A stretch of DNA of 63,961 nucleotides, the filler included. It is 4 parts of 4 records of this genome, joined end to end, with 100 filler letters (N's around TTAATTAATTAA, not from the genome) between each part and the next. Parts side by side here need not be neighbours in the genome. Positions count along the whole stretch, not along the records: positions 29,828 to 44,997 come from SRR2962707_1117; 3 more parts are not named here. The stretch is one strand, 5' to 3'. The notes beneath the pieces are model-generated. The model did not search any database. It was given only the letters and a program-made list of their open reading frames with translations, and was not told the origin of the DNA. Both the position numbers and the translations under genes were made by a program. This document shows positions 29,728-50,300 of this stretch, in pieces. How positions within the stretch are numbered: the stretch's first letter is position 1; each line of letters opens with the position of its first letter.

Positions 29728-29827
29728 NNNNNNNNNNNNNNNNNNNNNNNNNNNNNNNNNNNNNNNNNNNNTTAATTAATTAANNNNNNNNNNNNNNNNN
29801 NNNNNNNNNNNNNNNNNNNNNNNNNNN
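29728..29827. other. Artificial contig-join spacer
   Basis: N44-TTAATTAATTAA-N44, a six-frame stop linker. Confidence 0.98.
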
Positions 29828-29857
29828 TTTTTTTTTTTTTTTTTTTTTTTTTTACAG
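29828..29857 (+). other. 3' end of a spliceosomal intron (polypyrimidine tract and acceptor)
   Basis: T26 followed by ACAG|G, immediately before an in-frame coding exon. Confidence 0.75.
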
Positions 29858-29953
29858 GTTGCAACGCACCACGGCGTTGACAGCGAAGAGGCGAAGAAAT
29901 ACATCAAAAAAATGCAAACAGACAAACGCTACATTCAGGAGCTGTGGTCATGA
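29858..29953 (+). CDS. Terminal exon of an NADPH-cytochrome P450 reductase-like diflavin reductase
   Basis: VATHHGVDSEEAKKYIKKMQTDKRYIQELWS* matches the CPR-family C-terminus (A..YIKK....RY...WS) with the penultimate FAD-shielding Trp. Not in the ORF track. Confidence 0.8.
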   Translation, partial: VATHHGVDSEEAKKYIKKMQTDKRYIQELWS

Positions 29954-30019
29954 AGCCATTTTTGGGAAAAAAAAACATTGAGCTTGTTGTTTTTGTCAAC
30001 AATAATTTTATATTTACAC

Positions 30020-30025
30020 TTTATT
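30020..30025 (-). promoter_or_regulatory. Candidate polyadenylation signal for the giant gene
   Basis: TTTATT on + reads AATAAA on -, about 30 nt downstream of the stop codon, in an AT-rich 100-bp spacer. Confidence 0.4.
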
Positions 30026-30053
30026 AATTTTTGCTCAGAGTTTTGAGTTTGAG

Positions 30054-33000
30054 TTATCTTTTTTGTTGTCCGCGCTTTTGTTGGGCGTCAGCATCTTTCA
30101 ACGCTTCGCCGCCATAAAACCAGTCATCCAGGGCCTCTTCTTCGCCCTCGATCACCGCGCCAGTGCTACTGGCTTTCCTGCGCCTGGTGCGACCAGACCC
30201 AACTTTACCTTCTGTGTTTACAGAATCGCCTCTCGTGGAGATATTTTGCAACCTGTCAGTGAAAGTCGACGCTTGCTCCTCCCCCCGCCATTTGGATGTA
30301 CCGGTCTGCGCACCTGCTGGCTCGAGCATTGATGTTTCTTCGGCCTTCAGTGCAGTTGCTGGGGTTCGCCTGCGACTGCGGCGGGCGGATCCACTCTTGG
30401 CCTCGACTTGCGAATCATCTGCTTCACCACCACCACTTGTGTCCTGGTCCTGGTGTGTGGCCGTATGATTTTTGCGCCTGCGGCGCCTTGTTGACCGCGC
30501 GCTTTTTCGCGAAACGCCGACGGAGCTGTCCACAACTGTTGTAGCTGCCGCAGAGCGGCGCGAGCGCAGCCGACGCGCACCTGGTCCCGCACGCACGATT
30601 GAAGCGCGCGAGGCTGCTGGCTCATGATCGACGCTATCTGTTCCGACTCCAAGCTCTCCAGCCTCGGCAGTAGCAATAGCTTGCGATTTCTTGGAACGGG
30701 CACGCCGTCGGCGCCGCACCGCAGCTGGACCTGGACTGCCATCGTCAGCATCGTCTGCAACGTCCAGGACTGCCCCTCCCCCAACTGCCCTCACCGGCTT
30801 GATTTTGCTCAACGACTCGACACCCCCAAGCCTGGAGCTTGAGCGACTCAAGCTCAGCATCACCGGTGGGCCAACAACACCCACATCCGCAGGCCGGGGT
30901 CCGTCAGGCGGAGTGGCGGCGCCAATTTTCTTCAGGCGTGCTTTGGCAAGCTCGCGCTGGAACTTCAACGCGTCCGACACAACAACATCGCTCATTTGAA
31001 GGGCTTTGTGATTTAGCGCAGCTGGCCGCTCCCATTGACTTCGCCCAAGTGGGCCAGAGTAATAGTAAGGGAAACCGTTGGCGTCGGTGCACTGCACCCA
31101 CTCCCTTGCTGCTTGATGTGAAGCTGCAATCGTTTTCATGTCGAGCTCCTCCTCCTTCTCGGACGTGTTGTCTTTCGTTTTGCGGGAGAAGGAATGCAAG
31201 AACTCGGGCACGTCACCAGTCGCTTGTCGAGGTGTGGTTGAAAGACGAGGTGTAGTTTCACGGCTTGGACTGTCTTTTGTTTCCCTGGTCGCGGGTGACG
31301 GCGAATCTGCTGCGGCAAGTTGCGGCGACTCTGAACCTTGAGCATGCCGTGGCGAAGGCATTAGCTCTACTCCACTGCGCGAATCCTTTGGAACGACAGC
31401 TGCAGACGAAACCATGCCAGGCGGCATTGGGTATCCTCCAACGGGCATCATATGGACTTTGCGGTTCAGGTGTTCATGCTTTTTCTGCATCACAACGACA
31501 ACAATGATGATCACTATGATCAACAAGACGACGCACGCAATAACAACCCAAAGCCATGTGAGGTCCACAATCTCAGGTGGCTCGGTAACAGCAAGCTGAT
31601 AAGCAACGACTGGAACGCCGGCTGACGGCACGCAGTCCGGATTCAAGCTGGACTCCGACGTACGAGCGGCAACTTCGGACACAGCCTGCTGTTCGTTCAA
31701 GGTTGCGTTATAAGGAACCTGAACCTTGTAGACGTAAGTGAGAAATTTTTCATTATCTGCATCAAGCGAAGCAGACAAGTCGAAAGAAATGTCGTAAAAC
31801 TGCAAAGCAACTGTTTGGTCGCGCGGAGCGCCTGCACGTGTAAATCCAAGCACCTCCGTGTACGCTTGTTCCAAGCAATACGCCAGAAATGCGACAAGGT
31901 CGTCATTATACTGAGTAGTCGTGGGTGAGGTTGTCGGCACCAAATCAAAGCTTGTGCTGGTTGCGCTTTCAACACAAGGATAAGTCCCATCGCATGGCCG
32001 AGCCCACGCTACTTCCGCAACAGATGACGTACACTCATCATCGAAAATATACGAATACAAGATAATTTCGTCCAAGCCGTCGACAGAACATACAAAGTCA
32101 TTTCCGATCAGGTTTGGCTCCATCGCAGTGCGGTCCACAAGGTTGGTGCGCCATGGGCATGGATCGATGTCCCCGCATTGTCCATCATTGTCAAAGTCAT
32201 TGTACCAGTCTTGCGGACACGGGTCATCGTCGGCGCACATATTATCGAAATCAGCGTCATTTTCCGCATCGTATGGACAAGAGTCGATGTCCGCACAAAT
32301 TCCATCGCTGTCAGCATCGTTTTCTGCGTCAAGGGGGCATTCGTCGGAGCACTCGTCGTGGCACGCGCAACCACAGACGTTGCACAGGCCATGCTGCAAA
32401 CATCGTCCGTTGTTGTGTTCACCGATTCCATACGTATTGCAGCTACCAAACCCAATGTCAATGGAGAGGTCGTCGCGGCAAAGTGAACCGTCACCATTTT
32501 CACAAAGCCCATCACTGTCTTCGTCATTCTGGTTGTCGTACCAACAGGCGTCCGAGGACTCGCACAGTCCGTCTTCATCAACGTCATTGAGCACGTCTTG
32601 TGGGCAGGAGTCGTCCGCTAAGCAGATAAGATCGCTATCAACATCGCGCCCTGTTGGATCGTTGAGGCAGTTGTCGAAAGCAACATTCACGTAAATAACA
32701 AGATCCCATGTTGCTGCAGCCAACATTCGCTCGCGGCGGCCAGTGTCAGATTGCGACATGTGCACCAAGCGCGCATCAAGAGAAAGTAGGTTCCGATGCA
32801 GTTGCAATCGCAACGCAAGAACGTCTCCAAGTTGACTGTTTAGCCCAGAGCTTATGTCCACTGCGTCTCCGACAATGTTCATCCGAATTTCAGCAGATAC
32901 AGTTCCGTCGTTGGTCGAAAACGTTGAGTCCCTTGCCGCATATTGTGTCGCAAGAGAAAAGTTTGACATAAGAATATCGGCCATTTCACCACTCAGGCAC

Positions 33001-36000
33001 ATGATCTCCAAAGTCCGCACAAGTGCCACGTCGGCAGAATCATACGTGTCTTGGCATGCTCCATCGCCATCAGCGTCATTGTCTCGATCGAATGGGCAGG
33101 TATCCTCACTGGAACACAAATTATCACCGTCAATATCGTTTGCAGGATCTGCTGGGCAAGTGTCATCATCTTCACACAACAAATCGCTGTCTTCGTCGTT
33201 AAGTGCATCAGTTGCACAACTGTCAATGGACTCGCACAATGAGTCGCTGTCTGCATCGTTGGCAACATCAAGCGGGCAACGGTCCACATTACCACATAGG
33301 TTGTCGTCATCGAGATCATTTTCCTGGTCGAGAGCACATGAATCAACGTTGCCACAAATTCCATCACTATCAGCATCATTATCAGGATCATGGGGGCACT
33401 CGTCACGGAATCCGCACTCTGAAGCGCAAGAACAGCCACAGTGCCCGCCATCATCGCATGCACCATCGGCACGACAGTTGCCCTTGTTGGCTCGGGTATA
33501 AGTGAAACAACGACCAAATCCAGCATCCCAATCCGTCTCGTCCATGCACGTTCCTGGATGGCAAATATGGTCGCTATCGGCGTCATTTTCCGCGTCGAAG
33601 GGACAACTGTCCACATCCCCGCAAATGGCGTCCTGGTCCCAGTCATTTCTGTTGTCGAAGGGACAAGCATCGATGCTTGCACATACTCTATCGCTGTCGA
33701 TATCGTTTGCGACGTCTTCTGGGCAAGAGTCAACGTGCTCACAAAGGCCGTCGTTGTCGCTGTCGTTTTGATCGTCAAACGGACACGAGTCCACGTTTCC
33801 ACAGATTCCATCGCTATCAAAGTCATTGGCGGCATCCTGCGGGCAAGCATCACTGGTTCCGCAAATTCCATCGCTATCAACGTCGTCGTCTGAATCTTCG
33901 GGGCAAGGATCGAAAATGTCGCACACCATGTCACCGTCACTATCGTTGCCAGTGTCATAGGGACAGGAATCTACATCAGCACATACCAAGTCTGAATCAA
34001 CGTCGTTGGCAGGGTCTTGTGCGCAGCTGTCAACGTCTCCACACAAAGCGTCACTGTCAGCATCATTGTTGGGATCGTGTGGACACAGTTCAACGTCTCC
34101 ACACACATCGTCACTATCAATATCGTTTTCGGTATCTTGTGGGCACAAATCTTGAAATCCACACTCGGTCGCACACGAACACGGACAAACGTTGCATACC
34201 CCATCACGAACGCAACTTCCTGCATTGTACGAGATTGCCCGGTATGTGTGGCAAGAGCCCAGGCCGTTGTCAAAGTAGGTGTCCTCACGGCACACGTTCA
34301 TGTCCATTGCACATATTGCGTCACTATCTGCATCGTTCAGAATATCGTAGGGGCAACTGTCAGCATCGCTACAAATACCATCGCTGTCAGCGTCATTCTC
34401 CGCATCGTGCGGACAGGAATCTTCATCAGCGCACTGCCCGTCGCTGTCAACGTCATTTTCGGCGTCGTGAGAGCACACGTCGATCAGCCCACACTCAACC
34501 GCGCAGGTACAAGCGCAACGACTGCAAGCGCCATCCTCAACACAATGACCAAAATTATGGCGATTGTGGGCGTACGCCATGCATGTCCCTCCGTCGACTG
34601 GACTTCTGAACGCTGGGTCGTCTTCACAGTAATGCAACTCACAAATATTGTCACTATCAGCGTCATTTTCGTTATCGTATTTACAAGAGTCGTCAGTTTC
34701 ACAAATGCCATCACTATCAGCGTCATTCTCCGTGTCAAAGGGGCACGTATCTGTTGGGGCACACACAAGGTCGCTGTCTTTGTCGTTGAAGGTGTCGTAT
34801 GGACAAGAGTCGACTTCTGCACAAACACCGTCAGAATCAATGTCATTTTCGGTGTCAGTCGGGCACTGGTCATTCGCACGCACTCCGTTCGTGCAGAGAC
34901 CATCGCTGTCCATATCAATGCAACAAGTGTACTGGAACGACGTCAGTGCCTCAAACGTAAATCCCGCTTCACCGAAGTCACCGAAGGAAGACCCATACCA
35001 TGGAAATCGTCGTTGAACACTTGTGTCACCATTCGAGTCAAATGTGTACATTAACGCAACGAACTCGATTTCTTCTGGGAAGGGCATCTCCAATTGAACC
35101 GTAAACGTTCCGTTTCCAGCGGCTGCCATCACCACGACAATTCCATCCGTTGATGACTCCACCTTATTGGCAGTTGACGCGCTCTCAAGAAGGTATTGCT
35201 TGTTCAAAACTGTCGCAACCTCCAGCAGTATTTTTGTTTTTCCATCTGCGGCAACGGGAGTGCCATCTGCGTAAACAAAGCTAATGCTCAGGGAAAGTTC
35301 ACAACTGCCATCTTGTGGCTGCGAGATACTGAATCCATTGGAACTTTGAAAACGATATTTGTTTCCGAGCGCATACAACAAAAAGCTGGCATCAACGGCG
35401 TCAACGACACCATTCTTGTCCACATCCATGCTTGTAATTTGCTCTTGTTCGTGTGTGTATGCCAAGCTCCCTCCAGCAAGGTAGGTTTTTACCCAACTGA
35501 GATCTGTGACGGACACGCTGCAGTCCCAATTAACGTCACCGGTCATGTTACACGACTGATCATCCTCCAGCATTCTTCGATGATGTATTGGAACTTGAGG
35601 ACGCCGGCGGTTCGCAATTGCGGCAACGAGTTGTCGTCTGTCTGTGAAGTCAGTGCTCAGCACGCCACTTCCACTGACAATACGTCGACTTTTTTCACCG
35701 AGCACATTGTTGTTCAATGTCAGGGTTTCAATAACTGTTCCAGTGATTTCAGTTGCCCCCGATCCCTTGCACATAAAAGTTATGATTGCAAGCTCCGCGG
35801 ATGCTCCGGTTACTGAGCCTCCTGCCCCAATGATTTGCACAGCGGTGACAGGATCATTCAAGGTTGCGTCAAATGTTGCTGGCCAATCTTTGCCCGCTGC
35901 CGCAGCAGCGGCGGAAATCACCGCATGGTCAAACTCGAGCAAGATTTGGAAAGCCGTTAATGGTTGACCACCTGTATTTATTCGGACCGGTAAGTCAAAC

Positions 36001-39000
36001 GTTCCAGTTGCAGCGCATTCAAAGAAGAAGGGGGACCCAGCCAGGTTTCCTACATCGACATCAAAAGTGTCAGGGTTAAGATTCGTGGCCAACCGCTTGG
36101 ATGTTCCCACACTGTTGTCGCCCAGCGAAGCAATGTGAATTTGGACAGTGTCGTCGCCGGGCGTGTTGCCTGTCAATTCAACTACTCCAACAGAAGACAT
36201 ACTGACATAGTCAGTGTTTGACGAAGCGAATGAAAGGTACGTCGAAAGTTCAACCCAATCACCATCACCACCGGCAATCGTTTGAACAGCCGAAAACTGT
36301 GTATCATCGTCAAATGTCAACGCCAAAGTAAGGGCGTGTTCCGACCCAAGAAGTCCAACGATGTAGCTGGTAGCCGGAGATACTATTTGGATGTCCACAA
36401 CAGTCACTGGGGAGTCTAGAGATGTGAGAGCACAGCTAGTTGTTTGGTTTGCCCACACCGCGGTTAAAGTGCAGTTTCCTGAGCCAATGCCCTGGATTTG
36501 TTTTGTCTGAAGTTCGCCTTGCGATACTGTGCACGGGCCGCTCGACCCGCAGGCATCAACTATGGTGGCGACCTCAACGTCGGATATGGTGACGTCAACT
36601 GCTCTCCCAACCCCAACTTCGTATGTGTGCTTCATCACACTCTTTGCAAACAAGTTGGCCGACAGCCGCTGGAATGAGTTGCTCGCAAACTGCAGCGGCG
36701 CCATGGTCACCTTGTCCAGGCATTGCTGTGAGTTACATGCCGGAAAGGCAGAAGTTGACAAGTGCAAGGACTCAAACTTGTCAATTTGCAGATACGCAAA
36801 GCCTGTCACATTAGGTGCAAAAGCGCCAAGATTTACGGTGATGGTGACATTTGCGGCCTTTACGCTCTGACTGCGCACGGCAATGACATTTGCTGCAGTA
36901 AAAATGACGGATTCTTCGCTTAAAGTAGAAATAGCAGTGCGACTGTCTTGCGAAAAATCAATTTCTTGGCCATCTTCGAAAATTGCCGTGACCGTGACCG
37001 TTGCTTGTGTGGCCTGCAACACTGGTACAGCAGCGAGTGGGTCGGCGGCATGGACGATATTTCCATTGTCGATAGACACCCCAATTGCTACAATTGGCGG
37101 CATCTCGACATTTACGTATGGCCACGCTTCTACTTGAGCAACATCACACTTGGCAAGCGCGACGTGAACGAAATCCGAACCAGCCTGTTCAACCGCACCG
37201 ATCGGGATTTCGAGTTCGGCATTTGTCGCATTGACAACCACAAGACTTGTACTTGCCAGAACCGAAACGTTAAGGCTATGCTTGACTGGCGCAGATTCCT
37301 CATCTGAAAAGTGAGCAAATGCAAATACGTGAGCTCGGTCCCCCTCAGAATTTAAAGCCTGCACCGCAGACACTGTCACGTTTGCGTCACCATAGTTCGA
37401 GAATTGGTCCTCTGAGAACTGCATGCCACGGGTAAGTTCAAGCCCAGACAACACGTAGGCCTCCAAACTCGAAAGACGCACTTTCACATCTGACACAACA
37501 AAGCGAGCAGGAGTAACGTTGCATGCTACACCATTGCAAGAAATGGTCACCTCACCATCTCCAGGCGTCAAACCATACAACAAATCATTTTCAACGTGTG
37601 CCAAGTCACTGTCGCGGCCTTGAGGGTCGACCACCTTGAAGGACACGAAGCGAGTTACGTCTATATGCGAGACTGTGACAGGCCCCAATACAGACGCACT
37701 TGCAACCACAGGCGACCACTGGTACCAGGCGGTTTCGTTGCTGGCACTGCAGTTTTGACTCACAAAGTCAATGGCGTTTAATGTATTGTCTCGCACAGAA
37801 ACTTGCACACTTACGGGAAGCCACACTCGGAACAAGACAAGGGACTGCGTAAACGAGCCATACGTCACCGTCACGGAAGCATCTCCGCCGGCCGTCATTG
37901 ACGAATTGAGAAATGTTGCGCAATTTGCATTAATACCAATAAGCGATGCATCGTCTGAAGCACAGCTAACGGCGGACGTAACGTCCAATTTGCTGTTTCC
38001 TTCAGCGCAAGCTGTCACAGAGACACCATTTGTGTGGCACGAGCGAACAGCCAAAGCAGTCACCTGAGCGCTTCCTGGTTCTGTGCCGAACTGGGCCGTA
38101 TTGACAAATTCCTGCTCGTTGTTGTCAGCATCAACGTAAACCTGAATACCAACGTAAGAAGTTGCCTCGATGTTCATTACACCAGAAGTTCCAATGCCAA
38201 CTATAGATGACACGTATCCCGTTGTGTCGTCGAGAATTTTTCGACTTGAGGTGGAAACCAGCGTCAATGAGGATATAGATGTGATTGCTGCCACCTCGTC
38301 GCCAAGCGACGCGGAAGCTGATGTCTTCAGGCGAAATGCACCAACGAAAAGATGAGTTGAGGTAAGATCATCAGATTCCACACCACTCTTGAACGAAGCC
38401 GAGACCCGAAGGCCGGACGACAAAGTTGTAATCGTCAAGTCAAAAATATCCGAGGTAAAAGAATCAGCGACGAGTTCGAACTGATCAGACCAATCAATCT
38501 GTGCCACCCAAACGCCAAGCGCAAATGTACTCGAACCTGTGCCTGTGTGAACGAACAGATCCACAAGGAAAGACCCGCCTGGCACAGAGCTAAACCAGGG
38601 CAATGTTGCCAACAACCCAACGTCCGAAAGAGCGTTCGTGAAGGTTGGAACTGGCGCCAGCGATAGAACGTGTTCGTCCGAGTGCTGTTCGCCGGCAAGT
38701 AGGGCGTACACTGTTGCAACTTGTGCGTCAGCCGAAAACCACGAGATCGGAACTGTGCCCTTGCAGTTCACACCACTCGCGGACTGTAGCGTTCCACACG
38801 AGATAAGTTGAGAGTTGGTGCCCAACTCGACAATCAACTGCACCGGTGAACCGGCCTTGCTTGCAAACCCAGGACCAGATGTCCAAACCGTTGCAACAAT
38901 GCCGTTGCTGTCAACGTGGGCAGTCAATGTGCGCAACACCATGTTCACGCTTGTGTCCACTGTGTCAGGAACGTGTACAGTTGCTGTCGATATCGCAAAT

Positions 39001-42000
39001 GCGCCTTGAAGGCTCGCTGTGAGTGAGTAGGGCGCTCGCTGGTGGAATGAGCGTACAAGCTGAGTACTCGTTATGTTTCGCGTTTTCTCAAAGTATGCAC
39101 CTCCGCCGGTGGAAACGACTGCGCCGTGCACTTTGAAAGCATTCGTTGTCATGGCTGCAAGCTCCACCTCGATTGGTGAGTTGAAGCCATCATTGCCGCA
39201 GTATCCGTCGCCATCTTCATCGTTTTGATTGTCGTACGGACAAGAGTCAGCGTCGCCACATACGGCGTCAGAATCAATGTCGTTCTCAGGGTCGTTGGCA
39301 CAATGGTCAACACGCCCGCATACATCCGCACACGCACAGCATGCATCACAAGCGCCTTCGTCCGCCACGCAAAATTCAAAATTAGCCCGCGCATACGAAA
39401 GACAGTCACCAAAGCCAGAATCGAAAGTGGGGTCGTCGATGCAGAATAGTGGGTCACAGATACCATCGTCATCGGCATCATTGTTTGAATCAGTGCTGCA
39501 CGAATCAACATCGCCGCAAACATCATCAGAATCTCGGTCGTTATCGTTGTCGTATGGGCAGCTGTCTTCATCGCCGCAAATTCCATCACTGTCTGCGTCG
39601 TGCTCACTGTCATAAGGGCAGGCATCGTTAAGAATGCACTCCACCTCACAGCTGCATCCACAGACAGCGCACACTTGGTCACGTTCACAGAAACCATAAT
39701 TCGCACGCCCAGGCAAATAAGAGTCACATGGGCCGTGGCCTACGATGTCTGAGGCATTGCTATCATGGCACCGCCCGGCAACACATATGGAGTCACTGTC
39801 AAAATCGTTTTCAGTGTCGTATGGGCAGGAATCCACATTGCTGCAAATGTTGTCGCTGTCAGGGTCGTTCTCGGCATCGTAAGGGCACTTATCGGATAGC
39901 GTGCACGACAACACGACGCGTCCAGGAGACGCAGTCGTCATATTGGAAGCTTGGGGGCTCGTCGTCCAATGGCATTCCTGCCGACACAATCCATCGTTGT
40001 CGGCGTCATTCTCCGCATCGAAGGGGCATCTGTCATTGTTTCCGCAAATGTCGTCGCTATCCGCGTCGTTCATTGAGTCTCTTTCACAAGAGTCCAGGTC
40101 TGAGCAAATATTGTCCGAATCTTGGTCCTGAAAAAAGTCATGGCGGCAAGAGTCGATGCTGCCACAAATGCCGTCTAAATCCGCATCATTTTCAGCATCG
40201 TTTGGACATCGATCTCGCTCCCCGCAAATGGCATCGCTATCAATGTCATTTTCGCCATCTTCCGAGCAAGAGTCGACATTTCCGCACACGTCATCGCTGT
40301 CAAAATCATTTGCTGAGTCATAGGGGCAGCTATCTACATTGCCGCAGATATCGTCAGAGTCAGCATCGTGCTCTGCGTCAAGCGCACATTCGTCATCCTG
40401 TGCGCACAGTCCGTCGCCATCTGCGTCATTGTCTGGATCAAACGGGCAACTGTCAACGTCAAAGCAAAGACTGTCAGAATCTCCATCGTTCGCAGCGTCG
40501 CTAGCACAGCTATCGACGTCCCCGCAAACGTAGTCATTGTCGAAGTCGTTCAACGCATCGTATCTGCAGTCGTCTTCGTTGCCGCACGTTGAGTCGCTGT
40601 CGGCGTCGTTCTCAGCGTCGAAAGGGCAGGGATCATCAAGCCCACACTCATCGCTGCATGTGCACGCGCAAAGATTGCAAACGCCATCGAGTTTGCACTT
40701 GCCGTAGTTGGCGCGGCCCATGCCATATGTGAAACATGAGCCAAAACCTCCAACATCAGGCGCTTTGCTGTCTCGGCAGAAGCCTTGTACACACATCAGA
40801 TCACTGTCAATATCATTCATCCTGTCGTACGGACAGCTGTCTTGGTTCGAACACAGAGCATCGTTGTCTCCGTCGTTTTCAGCGTCGTACGGACAAGAAT
40901 CCACTTCTCCACACAGCTCATCACTATCAGCGTCGTGCTCAGCATCGCGGGGACAGGCATCGTCCGGAGAACACACCGCGTCTCCATCTGCATCGTTTTC
41001 GGCATCGTAAGGGCAGCTGTCGTCTTCACGGCACAAATTATCGGAATCACCGTCGTTGTAACGGTCAAACGGGCAGCTGTCATCCTGAGCGCACATCAAG
41101 TCGTCGTCAATATCGTTATTTCCATCAAAGGGGCACGAGTCGAAATCAGCACATACCCCATCACTGTCGGCATCATTGTAAACGTCGTGGGGACATGGGT
41201 CGCTGAGTCGGCATTCGGTACTGCAACTACAGCTGCAAACCTCGCAGACGCCGTCTGCGACGCATTTTCCGTTATTGGCGCGGCCACGAACGTATGTTCC
41301 GCACGGGCCGGCACCGGCAACATCGAGGGCTTTGCTGTCCTGGCACATACCCTGCACACAAATATTGTCACCATCGCTGTCGTTTTCGGCATCGTATGGA
41401 CAACTGTCGAAGCTATCACACAGCATGTCGTCATCGCTATCGTTATTGCCATCGACCGGGCACGAGTCCGCGTCCGAGCAGATCGTGTCGCTATCTCCAT
41501 CGTTTTCAGCATCGTACGGGCATGAGTCAACGGTTGAACACAGACCGTCGCTGTCGATGTCGTTCTCTGCATCGTGAGGGCAAGGATCGATCTCTGAGCA
41601 CTGCAACTCGCACGCGCACCCGCATATTTCACATACGTTGTCTCGAACACATTGTCCAAAATTTACTTGCCCAACGTGATAAGAGATGCAATTGAACTCC
41701 AAGAATTTGAAGCTAACATCATCTTCGCACTGCGTGGCTGCGCACAGATTGTCGGAATCCCAGTCATTTTCAGGATCAAAGGCGCAAGAGTCCACGTCAC
41801 CGCAGATCCCGTCTTGGTCTGTATCATTTTCATGGTCGTTGGGGCACGCGTCAAATGGTAAACACACGTTGTCGCCATCATCATCGTTGTTGGCGTCGTT
41901 GGGGCACGAGTCAAACATGGCGCAAACCCCGTCGGAGTCCGTATCCTCATTGTCACCATCCGCACACTCGTCTTTGTATGTGCACAGCTCATCAGAATCG

Positions 42001-44996
42001 GCATCATTGAGGTTGTCATGAGGGCATGTGTCAAAGTTTAAGCAGATTGTGTCGGAGTCGTTGTCGTTGAAGTAATCGTATGGACACGAATCTACGTTAC
42101 CGCAAGCGCCGTCGTCATCTGCGTCATTTTCCGCATCTAGTGGGCAGCCGTCCTGCTCTCCGCACAAGTCATCGCTGTCTGCATCATTGTATGAGTCCAA
42201 ACGGCACGAATCGACATCCCCACATATTAAGTCAGAGTCATGATCGTTGGCAGCATCGTAGGGGCAAGAATCCTCTGCGTGACACAGGGCGTCGCTGTCT
42301 GCATCATCCTCAGCATCAAACGGGCAAATGTCATCAATGTGACAAACGTGGTCACTGTCGGTGTCATCAATGACATCGAAAGGGCAACTGTCAATATTTC
42401 CGCAAAGTGCATCACTATCGTAATCGTTTGCGGCGTCGAGTGGGCAAGAGTCGACGTTTCCGCACAAGTCGTCACCATCAACATCGTTTTCTGCGTCAAA
42501 TGGGCAGTCTTCCAAATTGCCACAAACCATGTCGCTGTCACTGTCGTTGTCCACGTCCTCACTACACGAATCAACGTTGCCACAAATGGCATCGTTGTCA
42601 TGATCATTTTGTCTATCAAGCGGGCATGAGTCAAGGTTAGCACACACAGCATCTGAATCGGCATCGTTTGATTGGTCGTACGGACACGAATCCAAGTTGC
42701 CGCATACTCCATCACTGTCCATGTCATTCTCATTGTCCAGCGGACACATGTCGTTCAAATGGCACTCCACCGTACACGTGCAGGCGCAAATGTCACAAAC
42801 GCCGTCGTTCGCACATTGCCCAAAGTTGGAGCGTCCCTTAGCATAAGTGGCACAGGAACCAAAGCCTGCGACGTTTGTACTCGAACTGTCTTGGCATCTC
42901 CCTTGCACACATATCAAATCACTGTCAGCGTCATTGCCGCTGTCGTACGGACAGCTGTCGAAAAGCAGACAAAGCGAATCGCTGTCCGCATCATTTTGGT
43001 CATCAAGAGGGCAGGAATCTTCATCTGCACAAACGTTGTCGCTGTCAGCGTCATCGCTGGCATCCCATGGGCACACGTCATGCTGTCGGCACACCCGGTC
43101 ACTATCAGCGTCATTCTCTGCGTCTCGCGGACAACTATCTACGTTACCGCAAATCAAGTCTGAATCAACATCGTTGGCCGCATCGTATGGGCAGCTATCT
43201 TCGCTATGGCACAGGGCGTCACTGTCAGCATCGTCTTCAATGTCGTAGGGGCAGATGTCGTCAATGAAACAAACACTGTCACTGTCGGTGTCGTCCACGA
43301 CGTCATATGGACAACTGTCAATGTTGCCACAAAGCGCGTCACTATCGAAGTCGTTGGCCGCATCGAGTGGGCAAGAATCCACATCGGCACAAGCCCCATC
43401 CTTGTCAAAGTCGTCCTCAAAATCGTGGGGGCACACGTCAACGTTTCCGCAAGTGGAGTCGCTGTCCCAGTCGTTCTCAGGATCCTCCGCGCAACTATCA
43501 ACATCACCGCAAACATTGTCGCTGTCCAAATCATTGTCTCCATCATATTGACAGCTGTCCTGATCACTACATGTGGTGTCGCCGTCAACATCGTTTGAAG
43601 CATCATATGGGCAAGAGTCAGCGTCCCCACAAACAATGTCGCTGTCCGCGTCGTTTTCCGCGTCGAAAGGACAATTATCGTCAAGATGGCATTCGCTGCT
43701 GCAAGAGCACGCGCAGATATCGCACACGCCGTCATTCACACAATGACCCGCATTTGAACGACCAGATGCGTAGGTTGCACAAGAACCCTGACCAGCGACG
43801 TCGTTTTGCTTACTATCGCGGCACCGACCTTGAATGCAAATTGAGTCGCTGTCGATATCGTTCAAAGCGTCATAAGGGCATGAGTCAACGTTCCCACATA
43901 CTCCGTCACTGTCGGCATCATTCTCGTAGTCATATGGGCATGAGTCTATGTCACCGCAGATTTCGTCGTCGTCAGCATCATTTTCGAAGTCGTATCGGCA
44001 TTCATCCACGTCTCCACAAATAGCATCGTTGTCGGCATCGTCCTCAATGTCTTCTGGGCAATCCTCTTCATCTCCACAAATATCATCACTGTCAAAATCG
44101 TTTGCGGCATCGTAGGGGCAGCTGTCAACTGGGCCACAAATTTCGTCGCTGTCCGCATCATTCTCAACGTCGCCCGGGCAAGCCTCGTCGGTTGGGCAAA
44201 CTGAGTCACTATCAATGTCGTTTTCTGTGTCGACTGGGCATGGGTCTTCATCGCGACAGAGCAAATCTGAGTCAATATCGTTTGCTGCGTCGTACGGACA
44301 GCTATCGACGTCGCCGCAAATGTAGTCCTCGTCTTTGTCATTTTCACCGTCGCGAGGACACTCTTCTTTGTCACCACACACTCCATCACTGTCGACATCG
44401 TTTTCGGTGTCCAACGGGCATAAATCATCCAAATGACATTCAATACTGCACGTGCACGAACAAAGTGAACAAGCACCGTCGCGCACGCAATTTCCTGCGT
44501 TCGCACGACCATCTGCGTAGGTTGCACAGCCTCCATGCCCACTAATGTCAGCAATGTCACTGTCGGCACAATAGCCTTGCTCGCAAATGCCATCGCTGTC
44601 GCGGTCGTTGAACCCGTCGTATGGACAGCTGTCCATATCCCCACAAAGCAGGTCGTCATCGTAGTCGTTCGATTGGTCACGCGGACACGAGTCCACATCA
44701 CCGCAAACTAAGTCGTGGTCCGAATCGTTCTCTGCATCATATGGGCAACTGTCCATTGTTCCACAAATACCGTCACTGTCAGCATCGTGTTCAAAGTCGT
44801 AGGGACACAAATCATCTAGGCCGCACTCAACCCCGCAAGCGCAGGCACATGAATTGCAAACTCTATGTGCGACGCAGTTTCCATGGTTGTAGAAACCGGC
44901 TTCGTACGTGCCACAGGGACCATAGCCGGCAGCGTCACCGGCTTTATCGTTGCATTTACCTTGGACGCAAATTTGATCACTGTCTGCATCGTTTTC
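30054..44996 (-). CDS. Giant eukaryotic single-pass membrane protein (>=4980 aa, 5'-truncated): TSP3-like repeats, 8-Cys modules, TMEM132-like cohesin/Ig block, cohesin, dockerin, TM, WW
   Basis: The frame stays open from the contig edge (ENDADSDQICVQGKC...) to TAA at 30054-30056. The ORF-track start at 44810 is an internal TTG. Domains were recognised by motif (see sub-features). Confidence 0.9.
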   Translation of the reverse strand, partial: ENDADSDQICVQGKCNDKAGDAAGYGPCGTYEAGFYNHGNCVAHRVCNSCACACGVECGLDDLCPYDFEHDADSDGICGTMDSCPYDAENDSDHDLVCGDVDSCPRDQSNDYDDDLLCGDMDSCPYDGFNDRDSDGICEQGYCADSDIADISGHGGCATYADGRANAGNCVRDGACSLCSCTCSIECHLDDLCPLDTENDVDSDGVCGDKEECPRDGENDKDEDYICGDVDSCPYDAANDIDSDLLCRDEDPCPVDTENDIDSDSVCPTDEACPGDVENDADSDEICGPVDSCPYDAANDFDSDDICGDEEDCPEDIEDDADNDAICGDVDECRYDFENDADDDEICGDIDSCPYDYENDADSDGVCGNVDSCPYDALNDIDSDSICIQGRCRDSKQNDVAGQGSCATYASGRSNAGHCVNDGVCDICACSCSSECHLDDNCPFDAENDADSDIVCGDADSCPYDASNDVDGDTTCSDQDSCQYDGDNDLDSDNVCGDVDSCAEDPENDWDSDSTCGNVDVCPHDFEDDFDKDGACADVDSCPLDAANDFDSDALCGNIDSCPYDVVDDTDSDSVCFIDDICPYDIEDDADSDALCHSEDSCPYDAANDVDSDLICGNVDSCPRDAENDADSDRVCRQHDVCPWDASDDADSDNVCADEDSCPLDDQNDADSDSLCLLFDSCPYDSGNDADSDLICVQGRCQDSSSTNVAGFGSCATYAKGRSNFGQCANDGVCDICACTCTVECHLNDMCPLDNENDMDSDGVCGNLDSCPYDQSNDADSDAVCANLDSCPLDRQNDHDNDAICGNVDSCSEDVDNDSDSDMVCGNLEDCPFDAENDVDGDDLCGNVDSCPLDAANDYDSDALCGNIDSCPFDVIDDTDSDHVCHIDDICPFDAEDDADSDALCHAEDSCPYDAANDHDSDLICGDVDSCRLDSYNDADSDDLCGEQDGCPLDAENDADDDGACGNVDSCPYDYFNDNDSDTICLNFDTCPHDNLNDADSDELCTYKDECADGDNEDTDSDGVCAMFDSCPNDANNDDDGDNVCLPFDACPNDHENDTDQDGICGDVDSCAFDPENDWDSDNLCAATQCEDDVSFKFLEFNCISYHVGQVNFGQCVRDNVCEICGCACELQCSEIDPCPHDAENDIDSDGLCSTVDSCPYDAENDGDSDTICSDADSCPVDGNNDSDDDMLCDSFDSCPYDAENDSDGDNICVQGMCQDSKALDVAGAGPCGTYVRGRANNGKCVADGVCEVCSCSCSTECRLSDPCPHDVYNDADSDGVCADFDSCPFDGNNDIDDDLMCAQDDSCPFDRYNDGDSDNLCREDDSCPYDAENDADGDAVCSPDDACPRDAEHDADSDELCGEVDSCPYDAENDGDNDALCSNQDSCPYDRMNDIDSDLMCVQGFCRDSKAPDVGGFGSCFTYGMGRANYGKCKLDGVCNLCACTCSDECGLDDPCPFDAENDADSDSTCGNEDDCRYDALNDFDNDYVCGDVDSCASDAANDGDSDSLCFDVDSCPFDPDNDADGDGLCAQDDECALDAEHDADSDDICGNVDSCPYDSANDFDSDDVCGNVDSCSEDGENDIDSDAICGERDRCPNDAENDADLDGICGSIDSCRHDFFQDQDSDNICSDLDSCERDSMNDADSDDICGNNDRCPFDAENDADNDGLCRQECHWTTSPQASNMTTASPGRVVLSCTLSDKCPYDAENDPDSDNICSNVDSCPYDTENDFDSDSICVAGRCHDSNASDIVGHGPCDSYLPGRANYGFCERDQVCAVCGCSCEVECILNDACPYDSEHDADSDGICGDEDSCPYDNDNDRDSDDVCGDVDSCSTDSNNDADDDGICDPLFCIDDPTFDSGFGDCLSYARANFEFCVADEGACDACCACADVCGRVDHCANDPENDIDSDAVCGDADSCPYDNQNDEDGDGYCGNDGFNSPIEVELAAMTTNAFKVHGAVVSTGGGAYFEKTRNITSTQLVRSFHQRAPYSLTASLQGAFAISTATVHVPDTVDTSVNMVLRTLTAHVDSNGIVATVWTSGPGFASKAGSPVQLIVELGTNSQLISCGTLQSASGVNCKGTVPISWFSADAQVATVYALLAGEQHSDEHVLSLAPVPTFTNALSDVGLLATLPWFSSVPGGSFLVDLFVHTGTGSSTFALGVWVAQIDWSDQFELVADSFTSDIFDLTITTLSSGLRVSASFKSGVESDDLTSTHLFVGAFRLKTSASASLGDEVAAITSISSLTLVSTSSRKILDDTTGYVSSIVGIGTSGVMNIEATSYVGIQVYVDADNNEQEFVNTAQFGTEPGSAQVTALAVRSCHTNGVSVTACAEGNSKLDVTSAVSCASDDASLIGINANCATFLNSSMTAGGDASVTVTYGSFTQSLVLFRVWLPVSVQVSVRDNTLNAIDFVSQNCSASNETAWYQWSPVVASASVLGPVTVSHIDVTRFVSFKVVDPQGRDSDLAHVENDLLYGLTPGDGEVTISCNGVACNVTPARFVVSDVKVRLSSLEAYVLSGLELTRGMQFSEDQFSNYGDANVTVSAVQALNSEGDRAHVFAFAHFSDEESAPVKHSLNVSVLASTSLVVVNATNAELEIPIGAVEQAGSDFVHVALAKCDVAQVEAWPYVNVEMPPIVAIGVSIDNGNIVHAADPLAAVPVLQATQATVTVTAIFEDGQEIDFSQDSRTAISTLSEESVIFTAANVIAVRSQSVKAANVTITVNLGAFAPNVTGFAYLQIDKFESLHLSTSAFPACNSQQCLDKVTMAPLQFASNSFQRLSANLFAKSVMKHTYEVGVGRAVDVTISDVEVATIVDACGSSGPCTVSQGELQTKQIQGIGSGNCTLTAVWANQTTSCALTSLDSPVTVVDIQIVSPATSYIVGLLGSEHALTLALTFDDDTQFSAVQTIAGGDGDWVELSTYLSFASSNTDYVSMSSVGVVELTGNTPGDDTVQIHIASLGDNSVGTSKRLATNLNPDTFDVDVGNLAGSPFFFECAATGTFDLPVRINTGGQPLTAFQILLEFDHAVISAAAAAAGKDWPATFDATLNDPVTAVQIIGAGGSVTGASAELAIITFMCKGSGATEITGTVIETLTLNNNVLGEKSRRIVSGSGVLSTDFTDRRQLVAAIANRRRPQVPIHHRRMLEDDQSCNMTGDVNWDCSVSVTDLSWVKTYLAGGSLAYTHEQEQITSMDVDKNGVVDAVDASFLLYALGNKYRFQSSNGFSISQPQDGSCELSLSISFVYADGTPVAADGKTKILLEVATVLNKQYLLESASTANKVESSTDGIVVVMAAAGNGTFTVQLEMPFPEEIEFVALMYTFDSNGDTSVQRRFPWYGSSFGDFGEAGFTFEALTSFQYTCCIDMDSDGLCTNGVRANDQCPTDTENDIDSDGVCAEVDSCPYDTFNDKDSDLVCAPTDTCPFDTENDADSDGICETDDSCKYDNENDADSDNICELHYCEDDPAFRSPVDGGTCMAYAHNRHNFGHCVEDGACSRCACTCAVECGLIDVCSHDAENDVDSDGQCADEDSCPHDAENDADSDGICSDADSCPYDILNDADSDAICAMDMNVCREDTYFDNGLGSCHTYRAISYNAGSCVRDGVCNVCPCSCATECGFQDLCPQDTENDIDSDDVCGDVELCPHDPNNDADSDALCGDVDSCAQDPANDVDSDLVCADVDSCPYDTGNDSDGDMVCDIFDPCPEDSDDDVDSDGICGTSDACPQDAANDFDSDGICGNVDSCPFDDQNDSDNDGLCEHVDSCPEDVANDIDSDRVCASIDACPFDNRNDWDQDAICGDVDSCPFDAENDADSDHICHPGTCMDETDWDAGFGRCFTYTRANKGNCRADGACDDGGHCGCSCASECGFRDECPHDPDNDADSDGICGNVDSCALDQENDLDDDNLCGNVDRCPLDVANDADSDSLCESIDSCATDALNDEDSDLLCEDDDTCPADPANDIDGDNLCSSEDTCPFDRDNDADGDGACQDTYDSADVALVRTLEIMCLSGEMADILMSNFSLATQYAARDSTFSTNDGTVSAEIRMNIVGDAVDISSGLNSQLGDVLALRLQLHRNLLSLDARLVHMSQSDTGRRERMLAAATWDLVIYVNVAFDNCLNDPTGRDVDSDLICLADDSCPQDVLNDVDEDGLCESSDACWYDNQNDEDSDGLCENGDGSLCRDDLSIDIGFGSCNTYGIGEHNNGRCLQHGLCNVCGCACHDECSDECPLDAENDADSDGICADIDSCPYDAENDADFDNMCADDDPCPQDWYNDFDNDGQCGDIDPCPWRTNLVDRTAMEPNLIGNDFVCSVDGLDEIILYSYIFDDECTSSVAEVAWARPCDGTYPCVESATSTSFDLVPTTSPTTTQYNDDLVAFLAYCLEQAYTEVLGFTRAGAPRDQTVALQFYDISFDLSASLDADNEKFLTYVYKVQVPYNATLNEQQAVSEVAARTSESSLNPDCVPSAGVPVVAYQLAVTEPPEIVDLTWLWVVIACVVLLIIVIIIVVVVMQKKHEHLNRKVHMMPVGGYPMPPGMVSSAAVVPKDSRSGVELMPSPRHAQGSESPQLAAADSPSPATRETKDSPSRETTPRLSTTPRQATGDVPEFLHSFSRKTKDNTSEKEEELDMKTIAASHQAAREWVQCTDANGFPYYYSGPLGRSQWERPAALNHKALQMSDVVVSDALKFQRELAKARLKKIGAATPPDGPRPADVGVVGPPVMLSLSRSSSRLGGVESLSKIKPVRAVGGGAVLDVADDADDGSPGPAAVRRRRRARSKKSQAIATAEAGELGVGTDSVDHEPAASRASIVRAGPGARRLRSRRSAAATTVVDSSVGVSRKSARSTRRRRRKNHTATHQDQDTSGGGEADDSQVEAKSGSARRSRRRTPATALKAEETSMLEPAGAQTGTSKWRGEEQASTFTDRLQNISTRGDSVNTEGKVGSGRTRRRKASSTGAVIEGEEEALDDWFYGGEALKDADAQQKRGQQKR
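31023..31109 (-). other. WW domain in cytoplasmic tail
   Basis: REWVQCTDANGFPYYYSGPLGRSQWERP has W, the YYY aromatic triplet and WxxP. Confidence 0.85.
31488..31559 (-). other. Single transmembrane helix
   Basis: TWLWVVIACVVLLIIVIIIVVVVM followed by QKKH (positive-inside). Confidence 0.92.
32150..32680 (-). repeat. TSP type-3-like repeat block 3
   Basis: About 6 units of CPxDxxNDxDxDGxCxxxDx plus one 8-Cys insert. Confidence 0.85.
33054..34926 (-). repeat. TSP type-3-like repeat block 2
   Basis: About 23 20-aa units (estimate) plus three 8-Cys inserts. Confidence 0.88.
35367..35540 (-). other. Dockerin-like domain
   Basis: Duplicated Ca-loop/helix motifs GDVNWDCSVSVTDLSWVKTYL and MDVDKNGVVDAVDASFLLYAL. 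Confidence 0.8.
35700..36010 (-). other. Cohesin-like domain 2
   Basis: GTFDLPVRINT...LTAFQILLEFDHAVI...ELAIITF matches the cohesin strand pattern. Confidence 0.7.
37100..38620 (-). other. TMEM132-like block (cohesin-like domain plus three Ig-like domains)
   Basis: FVNTAQF, CASDD, VWLP...DNTLNAI, YQ, DVTRFV, LYGLTPG, VSDVKVRLSSLEAYVLSGLEL and AHFSD follow the order of TMEM132 conserved motifs as I recall them. Confidence 0.7.
39195..44996 (-). repeat. TSP type-3-like repeat block 1 (60-bp period)
   Basis: About 75 units (estimate) of consensus CPYDAENDADSDGICGDVDS plus nine 8-Cys inserts. Confidence 0.9.
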
Positions 44997-44997
44997 G

Positions 44998-45097
44998 NNN
45001 NNNNNNNNNNNNNNNNNNNNNNNNNNNNNNNNNNNNNNNNNTTAATTAATTAANNNNNNNNNNNNNNNNNNNNNNNNNNNNNNNNNNNNNNNNNNNN
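44998..45097. other. Artificial contig-join spacer
   Basis: N44-TTAATTAATTAA-N44. Confidence 0.98.
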
Positions 45098-45232
45098 CCA
45101 CATCCAGTTGAGGTTCTTGGGGGTCGGCATCATAATGGTGTCGTACAGCAGTCCGATCACCGGCAGGCGGCGATGCACCCACTTTTCGGCACCGGATTTC
45201 GGTTCGTAATGGTCGTGCGGAATTCCAGCCAT
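45098..45232 (-). CDS. petB: Cytochrome b, 5' end (partial)
   Basis: [12 protein letters not shown]...RLP...[10 protein letters not shown], a Rhodobacteraceae-type N-terminus, downstream of petA. Confidence 0.93.
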
Positions 45233-45243
45233 TTCTCTCTCCC

Positions 45244-45807
45244 TTACCCGAGAACGATCGTGGTTTCGTCAGCGAACTCGGCCGGGGGCACCGGGAGGTT
45301 GCGCGGTGCGGGGCCCTTGCGGATGCGGCCCGCAGTATCGTAGTGCGATCCGTGGCAGGGGCAGAACCAGCCATCGTAGTCGCCCGAATTATTGCCCAGC
45401 GGCACACACCCAAGGTGGGTGCAGACACCCATCATGACTAACCACTTGCCTGCTTCGTCAAGGGTGCGGTTCTCGTCTGTGGCTTCTGCCTCGGACGAAA
45501 GATTGTCGTTCCGCGCAACCTGGTCGACCAGTTCCGACACTTCGACGGCGCGACCTTCCTCAATTTCCTTGTCGGTGCGCAGACGGATAAAGACCGGCTT
45601 GCCCAGCCATTTAACCGTCAGCTGCGTACCTTCCGACACGCCGGCTACATCGACCCGGATCGACGACATTGCGAGAACGTCGGCCGAAGGGTTCATCTGA
45701 TTGACCAGTGGCCAGACTACTGCACCGGTGGCGACAACTCCGGCACCTGCGGTGGCGTAGTAGAGAAAATCTCTCCGGGTGCCTGCGTGATCGTCTGCGT
45801 GTGACAC
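45244..45807 (-). CDS. petA: Rieske Fe-S subunit of the bc1 complex
   Basis: Tat motif TRRDFL and Rieske motifs CTHLGC and CPCHGS. Confidence 0.97.
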
Positions 45808-46038
45808 GAGGTTTACTCCATTCCTGGGCCGTTGAAGGGGCCGAGACTAAAAGATCTGCCATGAAATTTCATGGCCTTATCGTCGGGGTGTTTAACGGGG
45901 TCCCCGGGTTGCGTCCAGAACTCAAAATCGCGTGTTCGTGAAAAGCGCGGATGTGTCGCGGTTGTGAGCCATAATAAGTAATTATATGACACCGGAAGAG
46001 TCGATGACCGCAAGGTCGTGCCCGTAAGGAATAAGGCG

Positions 46039-46704: not shown

Positions 46705-46723
46705 TCCGTATTCCATGGATTTG

Positions 46724-46754
46724 AAGAGGCCCCTGTTTCAGGGGCCTCTTTTTT
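46724..46754 (+). terminator. Terminator after lpxQ-like gene
   Basis: AAGAGGCCCCTG-TTT-CAGGGGCCTCTT-TTTT. Confidence 0.85.
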
Positions 46755-46810
46755 GTAACCTGCGCGCCGGTTCGGGTCGGTTCCGGCCCCAAGGGGGCTA
46801 CTTTGTCAGA

Positions 46811-47419: not shown

Positions 47420-47489
47420 CTGGGGTCCTTTCGATCGGGATCATTCCCGAAAATTTGGCAATTCGCGCGGACTTTATAAAGGGCATCGG

Positions 47490-48110: not shown

Positions 48111-48114
48111 GGGG

Positions 48115-50227: not shown

Positions 50228-50300
50228 GGTCTGGGATCTTGGATCCTTGCGGGTCTGATGGGGGGAGCCGCGCCTGAAACTGGCGCGGCTTCTGGAGGTA

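Follow-up and report, generated by a model that had tools for sequence, protein, structure and literature searches.

A giant receptor-like protein of a marine protist with a TMEM132/coherin-type core, Asp/Cys repeats, and a conserved cohesin–linker–dockerin–beta unit

The stretch of DNA analyzed here (the window, 63,961 nt) contains, on the minus strand of contig SRR2962707_1117, a single open reading frame (ORF) for a giant protein of at least 4980 amino acids (aa). Its best explanation, at a probability of roughly 0.6, is a protist nuclear gene for a giant type I receptor or adhesin that is processed and held together by a cohesin–dockerin clasp. Of this, the gene and the eukaryotic context it lies in, the identity and order of the domains, their folds, and the conservation of one unit and its basic motifs were observed or computed. 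An earlier sequence-only reading of this DNA had described a frame of at least 4980 codons, running for 14.9 kb with neither a stop nor an evident intron, and the 4980 codons are indeed open throughout. From stop to stop the frame covers 30054..45041 (minus strand), the last 45 bases of which are N, and the real sequence amounts to 4980 residues without a stop. The stop codon occupies 30054–30056, whereas the 5′ limit at 44996 is the contig end and not a start codon.

C-terminal to the Ig-like units of the giant protein lie a second cohesin (cohesin 2), a basic linker, a dockerin, and a beta-sandwich domain (Table 1), which sequence comparison indicates to be one conserved module, newly recognized here. 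The region containing them (aa 2960–3375) can be aligned over its whole length with 63 additional segments (a protein has at most four), and one relative (P0002) holds three cohesin–basic linker–dockerin units. The AlphaFold2 (AF2) model of this region, computed with 32 sequences, had a predicted local distance difference test (pLDDT) score of 84.1 and a predicted template modeling (pTM) score of 0.83, so the arrangement of its three domains (~140, 65, and 140 residues) is predicted with confidence. A Foldseek search with the model returned 116 matches at E ≤ 1e-3. Cohesin 2 scored just below the Pfam cut-off (PF00963, 22.3 bits vs. 24.1); its model matched 6kgc_A with a Z of 14.9 (root-mean-square deviation (rmsd) 2.2 Å over 129 residues) and many other cohesins with a Z of 11–14, a fold match that points to the nine-strand jelly-roll fold of cohesins and bears out the cohesin placed after the Ig-like units by the sequence-only reading. 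The polybasic linker and dockerin of that reading are also present. The linker is basic over aa 3119–3146, and the dockerin passed its Pfam cut-off (Dockerin_1, PF00404, 37.5 bits vs. 22.9), matched the Xyn10B dockerin of C. thermocellum (2ccl_B) with a Z of 10.7 (rmsd 1.4 Å over 62 residues, 31% identity), and, as a family profile, matched PDB dockerins at E 8.5e-5. Both of its Ca2+ loops, DVNWDCSVSVTD and DVDKNGVVDAVD, are intact, forming the duplicated EF-hand-like loop plus helix. A complex prediction between the cohesin (A2 residues 16–168) and the dockerin with the beta domain (187–404) gave 0.13 against a mark of 0.34; no alignment was used, the fold of the partner was uncertain, and the score is evidence neither way.

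The linker is the sole disordered part of the unit model (residues 170–186, pLDDT < 50, RRRPQVPIHHRRMLE). A dibasic motif was found in 56 of the 64 homologous linkers, at a density of 5.27 per 100 aa compared to 0.17 across the remainder of the unit, a 31-fold difference. RRxL motifs numbered 34 in the linkers and two elsewhere in the units, and Rx[KR]R, which is the furin-type consensus, occurred 39 times in the linkers and once elsewhere. Linkers of units in a cadherin context mostly had Rx[KR]R (15 of 18), and those in an Asp/Cys- or TSP1-repeat context mostly RRxL (five of seven). None of the six copies in the context of Dictyostelium-type Cys repeats (Dicty_CTDC; P0079, P0084, P0088, P0089, P0091, and P0098), with a linker of 19 aa, had a basic motif, and in these the unit may remain uncut. 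Because the variable linker keeps only protease-type motifs, and because the type of motif tracks the repeats of the parent protein, cleavage is the best explanation, and we infer from these motif patterns that the giant protein is processed at basic loops. Its 4484-aa ectodomain contains seven RR positions, four of which are in the cohesin–dockerin linker and one at an RRERML motif nearer the membrane. Candidate protease types for such loops are kexin/furin-like, site-1 protease (S1P)-like, or PEXEL-type.

N-terminal to this unit lies the TMEM132/coherin-type core. The Ig_TMEM132_4th domain (PF16070), at aa 2295–2394 (37815–38114), passed its cut-off of 27 bits with a score of 38.1. Cohesin 1, just N-terminal to it, had no direct Pfam match and was assigned by transitive homology, with aa ~2122–2230 aligning (BLASTP E 1e-8) to the part of P0016 assigned to Cohesin by Pfam (51.4 bits), which lies just before the Ig_TMEM132_4th of that protein. 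Given that the stretch ahead of Ig_TMEM132_4th aligns with this cohesin, the order is candidate conserved region, cohesin, and Ig domains, which is the arrangement known from TMEM132 (PMC6030884), and the TMEM132-like cohesin and Ig block of the sequence-only reading is confirmed. Ahead of cohesin 1 is a conserved LRTxTxYxDS block (family alignment A4), and no TMEM132 conserved-region (CR) model matched. The further Ig-like units proposed in the same reading gave weak matches alone (Ig_TMEM132_6th, 13.3 bits; LigB Big_2, E 0.03), and we retain them as possible Ig-like units.

The core is shared with a wide range of proteins. The giant protein (aa 1930–3370) matched P0002, a 6246-aa protein with Cadherin, Cohesin, and Ig_TMEM132 domains, at E 4e-59, and a search with aa 1930–3129 retrieved representative clusters numbering 301 at E ≤ 1e-3 and 63 at E ≤ 1e-30. 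Among the best-scoring full-length matches, most covered almost the whole of the ~1150 residues, with ~25–33% identity; a follow-up homologue search with the core among shorter proteins gave five matches and nothing further. The core is combined with TSP1 repeats in P0006, P0011, P0015, and P0017, with an ankyrin tail in P0007, with cadherins in P0002, and with Dicty_CTDC repeats in the six proteins named above. In the giant protein, the Asp/Cys repeats occupy the place of the cadherin, TSP1, or Dicty_CTDC repeats of other lineages. No Cadherin match was obtained at E ≤ 0.01 with the whole protein, nor at E ≤ 1 in eight segments or 33 repeat slices; hence, the giant protein is not a coherin, and it is instead a member of a wider set of TMEM132-core receptors with a new repeat type. 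The coherin-like surface protein with TSP3-like in place of cadherin repeats that had been proposed from the sequence is thus upheld as to its single-pass form and homologous core, though the giant protein is not alone in this design. We found no description of the architecture, which the sequence-only reading did not recognize from any described protein, but it is shared by the uncharacterized relatives P0024, P0030, and P0161. The first two are 58–60% identical to the giant protein and share its Asp/Cys repeats and inserts, P0024 matching it in the stretches compared (the cohesin 2–dockerin unit and aa 3960–4520). In P0161, a full-length analogue of 4028 aa, a signal peptide and 36 copies of the repeat are followed by the core, the cohesin–linker–dockerin–beta unit, a Ser/Thr-rich stretch, TSP1 repeats, a transmembrane (TM) helix, and a basic tail; it predicts the form of the missing N-terminus of the giant protein. 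A search of the papers available found neither the architecture nor a cleaved cohesin–dockerin unit described, with the reservation that the supplementary figures of PMC6030884 may show some of the relatives. Separately, a 2388-aa JGI protein (P0180) with 18 Asp/Cys repeats and a MIP-T3 (IFT54) CH-like domain (100 bits) probably arose when the gene caller fused two eukaryotic genes.

The Asp/Cys repeats comprise 97 motif anchors in three blocks (aa 2–1925, 3384–3973, and 4137–4266), in agreement with the ~1930 aa of repeats and the later blocks interrupted by a non-repeat domain that had been reported from the sequence. The spacing of the anchors is exactly 20 aa in 77 of 96 cases, and the consensus is vDSCPyDaeNDaDSDx[ILV]Cgd, in which D2, D7, N10, D11, D13, and D15 are near-invariant (87–96 of 96). 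Among the repeats are 13 Cys-rich inserts of ~49 aa each (11 by strict regular expression and two variants), with eight Cys in 12 of the 13 insert slices and nine in the last, which runs into the next repeat. When the repeats were compared to Pfam in 80-aa slices, TSP_3 (PF02412) was the sole recurrent family and the best match in 7 of 33 slices; six of these scored 12–14 bits, and 26 slices had no TSP_3 match. Bacterial PF02412 proteins (marine proteins with a type IX secretion system (T9SS) tail or OmpA) match the 20-aa repeats at 38–50% identity. Among the proteins compared, the 8-Cys insert was present in eukaryote-like relatives only, and in none with the bacterial-type Pfam domains (T9SS tail, OmpA). 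The inserts had no Pfam match, a search of PDB sequences with a 400-aa stretch of repeats gave no match at E ≤ 10, and a Protein Atlas search with the core and the Cys-rich insert gave best scores of 0.78, under the useful range. TSP3 repeats are established to bind Ca2+ (Kvansakul 2004, as cited in bioRxiv 10.1101/2023.11.21.568195); by analogy, the DxDxD repeats would do so as well and, with two Cys per unit, would build a rigid stalk stapled by disulfides.

Also present are the beta-rich and GRRERML domains, the TM helix, and the Arg-rich tail noted in the sequence-only reading. The GRRERML domain was modeled with a pLDDT of ~90 and a ferredoxin-like fold (best Z 6.5), and its RRERML motif lies in a loop (pLDDT < 50) between the last two strands; an RRxL-type motif occurs at this position in all eight relatives that cover the domain. 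The juxtamembrane domain matched the SEA region of Gpr126 (6v55_A, Z 5.3) and the SEA domain of MUC16 (1ivz, Z 4.8) among unrelated folds of equal Z, and a Foldseek search with the C-terminal model gave no match at E ≤ 1e-3, with weak S24e/S6-like matches. The tail is 48–53% identical to three translated locus stretches, with invariant motif blocks; the L001 and L003 tails coincide, so that the three stretches represent two distinct sequences. In four aligned tails (three distinct sequences), the residues W4633, W4655, and P4658 and the central Tyr residues of the putative WW domain are invariant. Given this domain, the polybasic runs, and the invariant short motifs, cytoplasmic coupling is likely. 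One invariant block of the tail, VPEFLH[ST]FSRKT (~31190–31230, aa ~4590–4606), found in three distinct orthologous tails, contains L-H-[ST]-F, which we take to fit the WIRS (WAVE-complex binding) pattern; the motif is short, and a chance match is possible. WIRS motifs are reported in TMEM132 tails (PMC6030884).

Table 1. Features of the giant gene and its convergent neighbor, with positions in the window.
Feature	Position	Strand	Remark
Giant ORF, 4980 codons + stop	30054..44996	−	5′-truncated by contig end
Repeat block 1, aa 1–1930; 20-aa Asp/Cys TSP3-like repeats and nine 8-Cys inserts	39207..44996	−	
TMEM132/coherin-type core, aa 1931–2960; candidate conserved region, cohesin 1, Ig_TMEM132_4th, possible further Ig-like units	36117..39206	−	
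Cohesin 2, aa 2976–3118	35643..36071	−	Pfam, AF2 model, and fold match
Basic linker, aa 3119–3146, with DRRQL, NRRRP, HHRRML; proposed cleavage site(s)	35559..35642	−	
Type I-like dockerin, aa 3150–3214, two Ca2+ loops	35355..35549	−	
Beta-sandwich domain after dockerin, aa 3216–3356, part of conserved ~400-aa unit	34929..35351	−	
Repeat block 2, aa 3366–3978, with three Cys-rich inserts	33063..34901	−	
Alpha/beta 'GRRERML' domain, aa 3986–4107; RRERML at 32721–32738	32676..33041	−	
Repeat block 3, aa 4111–4280, with one Cys-rich insert	32157..32666	−	
Juxtamembrane alpha/beta domain, aa 4281–4484, possibly SEA-like	31545..32156	−	
Single TM helix, aa 4481–4503, then QKKHEH	31488..31556	−	
Cytoplasmic tail, aa 4504–4980, 16% K+R, WW domain and invariant short motifs	30057..31487	−	
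WW domain, aa 4632–4658	31023–31103	−	Pfam below cut-off
Convergent neighbor; T26 polypyrimidine tract + ACAG acceptor, last exon of diflavin (cytochrome P450 reductase (CPR)-like) reductase	29828..29953	+	

The giant frame is a real, correctly assembled gene. Run X1, which belongs to a different study, contains one 17,078-nt contig that spans 29862–44997 (15,136 nt) with zero differences, and contigs of a further run (X2) tile the same stretch. Copies of the repeat DNA are just 60–75% identical, with no long near-identical repeat for an assembler to collapse. Misassembly across the repeats, which the sequence-only reading had raised against itself, was thus not borne out by the identical X1 contig, the divergent repeat DNA, the agreement with relatives in the stretches compared, or the conserved tail. 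The X1 and X2 contigs both end at 44996/44997, inside the repeats, which makes the 5′ break a repeat problem common to short-read assemblies; an exact 38-mer from the 5′ end of the ORF had no match in metagenome contigs. Over the repeat blocks (31852–34887 and 38936–44997), k-mer depth in X1/X2 was 3–10 times the contig baseline (~100–490 vs. 48), and many contigs link repeat to repeat. Given this raised depth, the source organism probably has many paralogous Asp/Cys-repeat genes. Antisense open frames of 150–367 aa also lie opposite the giant ORF (30803–44707, plus strand; e.g., 33506–34609) and probably result from the codon bias of the repeats rather than being genes.

The gene next to it is eukaryotic. 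The last exon of the reductase (29858–29953, plus strand, 31 codons, VATHHGVDSEEAKKYIKKMQTDKRYIQELWS) ends 100 nt from the stop codon of the giant gene, and similar sequence lies downstream of the giant-gene homologues in loci L001/L003 and L004; by sequence comparison, the tail-to-tail synteny is conserved in these loci. On the minus strand of L001, pieces in different frames matched Flavodoxin_1 (109 bits), FAD_binding_1 (33.8), and NAD_binding_1 (20.4), and the reductase (3258–6425, minus strand) consists of at least 5–6 coding pieces in different frames, tail-to-tail with the giant-gene homologue. Pfam searches of seven ATG-initiated ORFs downstream in L001 gave no match, whereas the exon-wise reading of the minus strand did. 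The last exon is 58% identical between the window and the L001 reductase; with the T26 tract and ACAG acceptor ahead of it, and a multi-exon counterpart in L001, the spliced neighbor noted from the sequence holds. As this neighbor is a spliced diflavin reductase with conserved synteny, the contig is genomic and eukaryotic. An A26 run at the contig end was considered as a poly(A) tail and ruled out, the plus strand reading T26 + ACAG before the conserved reductase exon.

The partner domains in relatives of the giant protein are TSP1, ankyrin, cadherin, MIP-T3, and Dicty_CTDC, and its closest relatives are marine metagenome sequences (50–61% identity). The sole named eukaryotic source among the matches was the EukProt label 'INCI' (four proteins, ~38–41% identity), which we take to be Incisomonas marina, a stramenopile. 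The source organism is a marine protist and, tentatively, a stramenopile.

The proposed mechanism, in which processing is followed by clasping, goes beyond the sequence-only reading. Runs of the 20-residue repeat with 8-Cys knots would form Ca2+-loaded, disulfide-stapled stalks, on which an ancient core of the TMEM132/coherin type, with its conserved region, cohesin, and Ig-like domains, would be mounted and spaced out. Judging from its family, this core would mediate adhesion. Passage through the secretory pathway would bring cuts at exposed basic loops, one in the linker that joins cohesin 2 to the dockerin (RRQL/RRML) and one in the RRERML loop of the ferredoxin-like domain nearer the membrane. 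The pieces would stay joined non-covalently through an in-cis cohesin–dockerin(–beta domain) clasp and the split alpha/beta domain, giving force-sensitive or sheddable joints akin to those of furin-cut Notch, SEA mucins, and GAIN receptors, while the conserved tail, with its WW domain, polybasic runs, and invariant short motifs, may couple the receptor to cytoplasmic partners. Cohesin–dockerin pairs are among the most force-resistant protein pairs known. The unit may further be a widespread, undescribed eukaryotic 'cut-and-clasp' joint, cut in its linker by the secretory protease of each lineage, an extension that we put forward tentatively and at somewhat less than even odds. Equally tentative is its division by lineage, with Rx[KR]R in holozoan-type cadherin proteins, RRxL in SAR-type protists (the stramenopile, alveolate, and rhizarian group), and an uncut amoebozoan-type form, for which we would also hesitate to claim an even chance.

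Several points weigh against this explanation. Ca2+ binding and stiffening, cleavage, the clasp, the surface location, and a role in adhesion, prey capture, or coat assembly are predictions. The contact between cohesin 2 and the dockerin within one chain is suggested by the model through its pTM alone. Eight of the 64 linkers have no dibasic motif, and cleavage is therefore not universal in the family. Both membrane-proximal domains had generic ferredoxin-like matches only, with SEA at background level. The WW domain scored 21.4 bits here and 23.7 in L001, under the cut-off of 26.9 (PF00397), and the claim made for it from the sequence thus keeps its invariant Trp-Trp-Pro signature and lacks a Pfam score above the cut-off. 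Much the same applies to the name TSP3-like, which is favored by TSP_3 being the top match in the slices noted above, though just one of the 33 (30.6 bits, in block 2) passed the gathering score of 25. The N-terminus, with its expected signal peptide, lies beyond the contig end. The X2 contig is one base short at 30281 relative to the window, with which X1 agrees; the window frame retains the C-terminal EEALxxWF motif common to the orthologues and is thus probably right. Finally, the taxon placement depends on one label, EukProt 'INCI'.

The serious rival to this explanation is a trans-acting, coat-building dockerin, which would plug into cohesin 1 or cohesin 2 of neighboring molecules, or into separate cohesin proteins, and knit them into a surface coat or lattice, leaving the linker as a tether or ligand site. 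Each chain has two cohesins and one dockerin, cellulosomal pairs are established to act in trans (PMC6030884), and the 3–10-fold k-mer depth of the repeats suggests many paralogous repeat proteins in one organism. Yet the ~400-aa unit stays intact, with cohesin 2, dockerin, and beta domain invariably found together and in one order, the Dicty_CTDC-context copies are joined by 19 aa, which fits an in-cis pair, and the single-chain pTM is 0.83. As a trans-acting dockerin would also leave unexplained the protease-type motifs of the linker and their tracking of repeat type, we consider it unlikely, although it merits more weight than the two remaining readings.

One of these is a bacterial origin, with the giant protein as a TSP3/dockerin adhesin like the Omnitrophota giants, from the bacterium of the flanking contigs. 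The other three contigs of the window are bacterial, the frame runs for 14.9 kb without an intron, cohesin, dockerin, and TSP3 are common in bacteria (with the T9SS/OmpA proteins 38–50% identical to the repeats), and giants with TSP3 and dockerin are described in bacteria (bioRxiv 10.1101/2023.11.21.568195). This is very improbable in view of the spliced eukaryotic reductase that shares the contig at a distance of 100 nt and in conserved synteny, the GC content unlike that of the bacterial contigs, closest relatives that carry TSP1, ankyrin, cadherin, and MIP-T3 and include EukProt entries, the Cys-rich insert seen in none of the T9SS-tail/OmpA proteins compared, and the type I topology with a 477-aa basic tail and WW domain. 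Likewise, aa 1930–3375 scanned against 185,579 prokaryote genomes gave 51 pattern matches and no relative, the scan reaching close relatives only. The other reading takes the long frame as an assembly chimera or a collapse across repeats, so that the architecture would not exist in one molecule; the protein is highly repetitive, the contigs of the window, X1, and X2 all break inside repeats at 44997, and other contigs provide many cross-repeat joints. Against it stand the X1 contig without differences, the divergence of the repeat copies at the DNA level, the agreement of P0024 with the giant protein in the stretches compared, and the full-length P0161, which shows the same order with repeats ahead of the core, and we hold an artefact to be just as improbable.

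TMEM132 proteins are ~1000 aa long and are not known to carry repeats. Like the giant protein, those of animals have a cohesin followed by Ig_TMEM132_4th, a single pass, and a motif-rich tail (PMC6030884), whereas the giant protein pairs a second cohesin with a true dockerin; vertebrates have no detectable dockerin (PMC6030884). The TMEM132 block is also known from the coherins, lefftyrins, and hedglings of choanoflagellates and sponges (PMC6030884), which are likewise single-pass giants in which repeats, Ca2+-binding in these cadherins and putatively so in the giant protein, flank the conserved region, cohesin, and Ig-like block. The giant protein differs from coherins by having 20-aa Asp/Cys repeats and 8-Cys inserts in place of cadherin repeats, RRxL rather than Rx[KR]R as its linker motif, and a WW domain in its tail. 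Its repeats share the DxDxD...D.CP register and paired cysteines with thrombospondin/COMP and bacterial TSP3; however, their period is a strict 20 aa, a Cys is found at a TSP3 Asp position (DxDSDxxC), and the thrombospondin C-terminal lectin-like domain is absent. The Omnitrophota 'Dockerin-type' giants are bacterial TSP3 and dockerin proteins of >30,000 aa (bioRxiv 10.1101/2023.11.21.568195) that resemble the giant protein in size, in their TSP3 repeats and dockerin-like modules, in a C-terminal membrane anchor, and in a proposed attachment role. They differ in having many dockerins, CBM-like units, and SecA-related domains, with no TMEM132 block or eukaryotic gene setting.

The type I cohesin–dockerin pairs of cellulosomes are close in fold to those of the giant protein (Z 14.9 and 10.7), with both Ca2+ loops, whereas in the giant protein the two modules are adjacent in one eukaryotic chain, with a conserved beta domain and basic linker and without an enzyme or scaffoldin context. 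The Notch S1/heterodimerization domain (HD), SEA (mucins, Gpr126), and GAIN are cleaved-but-associated receptor modules, and by analogy the predicted loop cut in the giant protein would leave chains joined non-covalently near the membrane. The holding unit in this case would be a cohesin–dockerin pair, for which no such role was found in our literature search; furin is mentioned in none of the papers that the search listed.

If the cut-and-clasp joint is real, giant adhesion receptors would gain from it a calibrated mechanical fuse or a point of shedding, with a function parallel to that of GAIN, SEA, and the Notch HD, and it would suggest a past partner of the orphan cohesin in animal TMEM132. 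Discussion of the TMEM132/coherin block has centered on animals and their nearest relatives; here, the same ~1150-aa core is the chassis in quite different eukaryotes, each with a different extracellular repeat. The pairing of cohesin and dockerin with protease-type motifs offers a bench-testable hypothesis on receptor maturation and force response, and it bears on cohesin function in human TMEM132 proteins.

The window as a whole consists of four contigs (1–29727, 29828–44997, 45098–58685, and 58786–63961) joined by N44+TTAATTAATTAA+N44 linkers at 29728–29827, 44998–45097, and 58686–58785. The other three carry ordinary bacterial genes (10 ORFs scanned), including those for pyruvate kinase, N-formylglutamate amidohydrolase, PriA, UvrC, a XerC/D-type integrase, the Rieske protein petA with a twin-arginine translocation (TAT) signal, and ATP-binding cassette (ABC) and branched-chain permease components. 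GC content is 50–55% in the giant-gene contig and 52–63% (mostly 57–63%) in the bacterial contigs. As the other contigs carry bacterial genes, the 15.2-kb contig is a eukaryotic passenger inside a bacterial assembly or bin, and a practical use of this work is to flag it as such. After petA, the start of another open frame is seen. Among the related loci, an (AAC/GTT)n run lies within an intron of the L001 reductase (~3480–3600), and (GACC)n and (CAA)n microsatellites follow the stop of the P0024 gene (3′ flank of L002).

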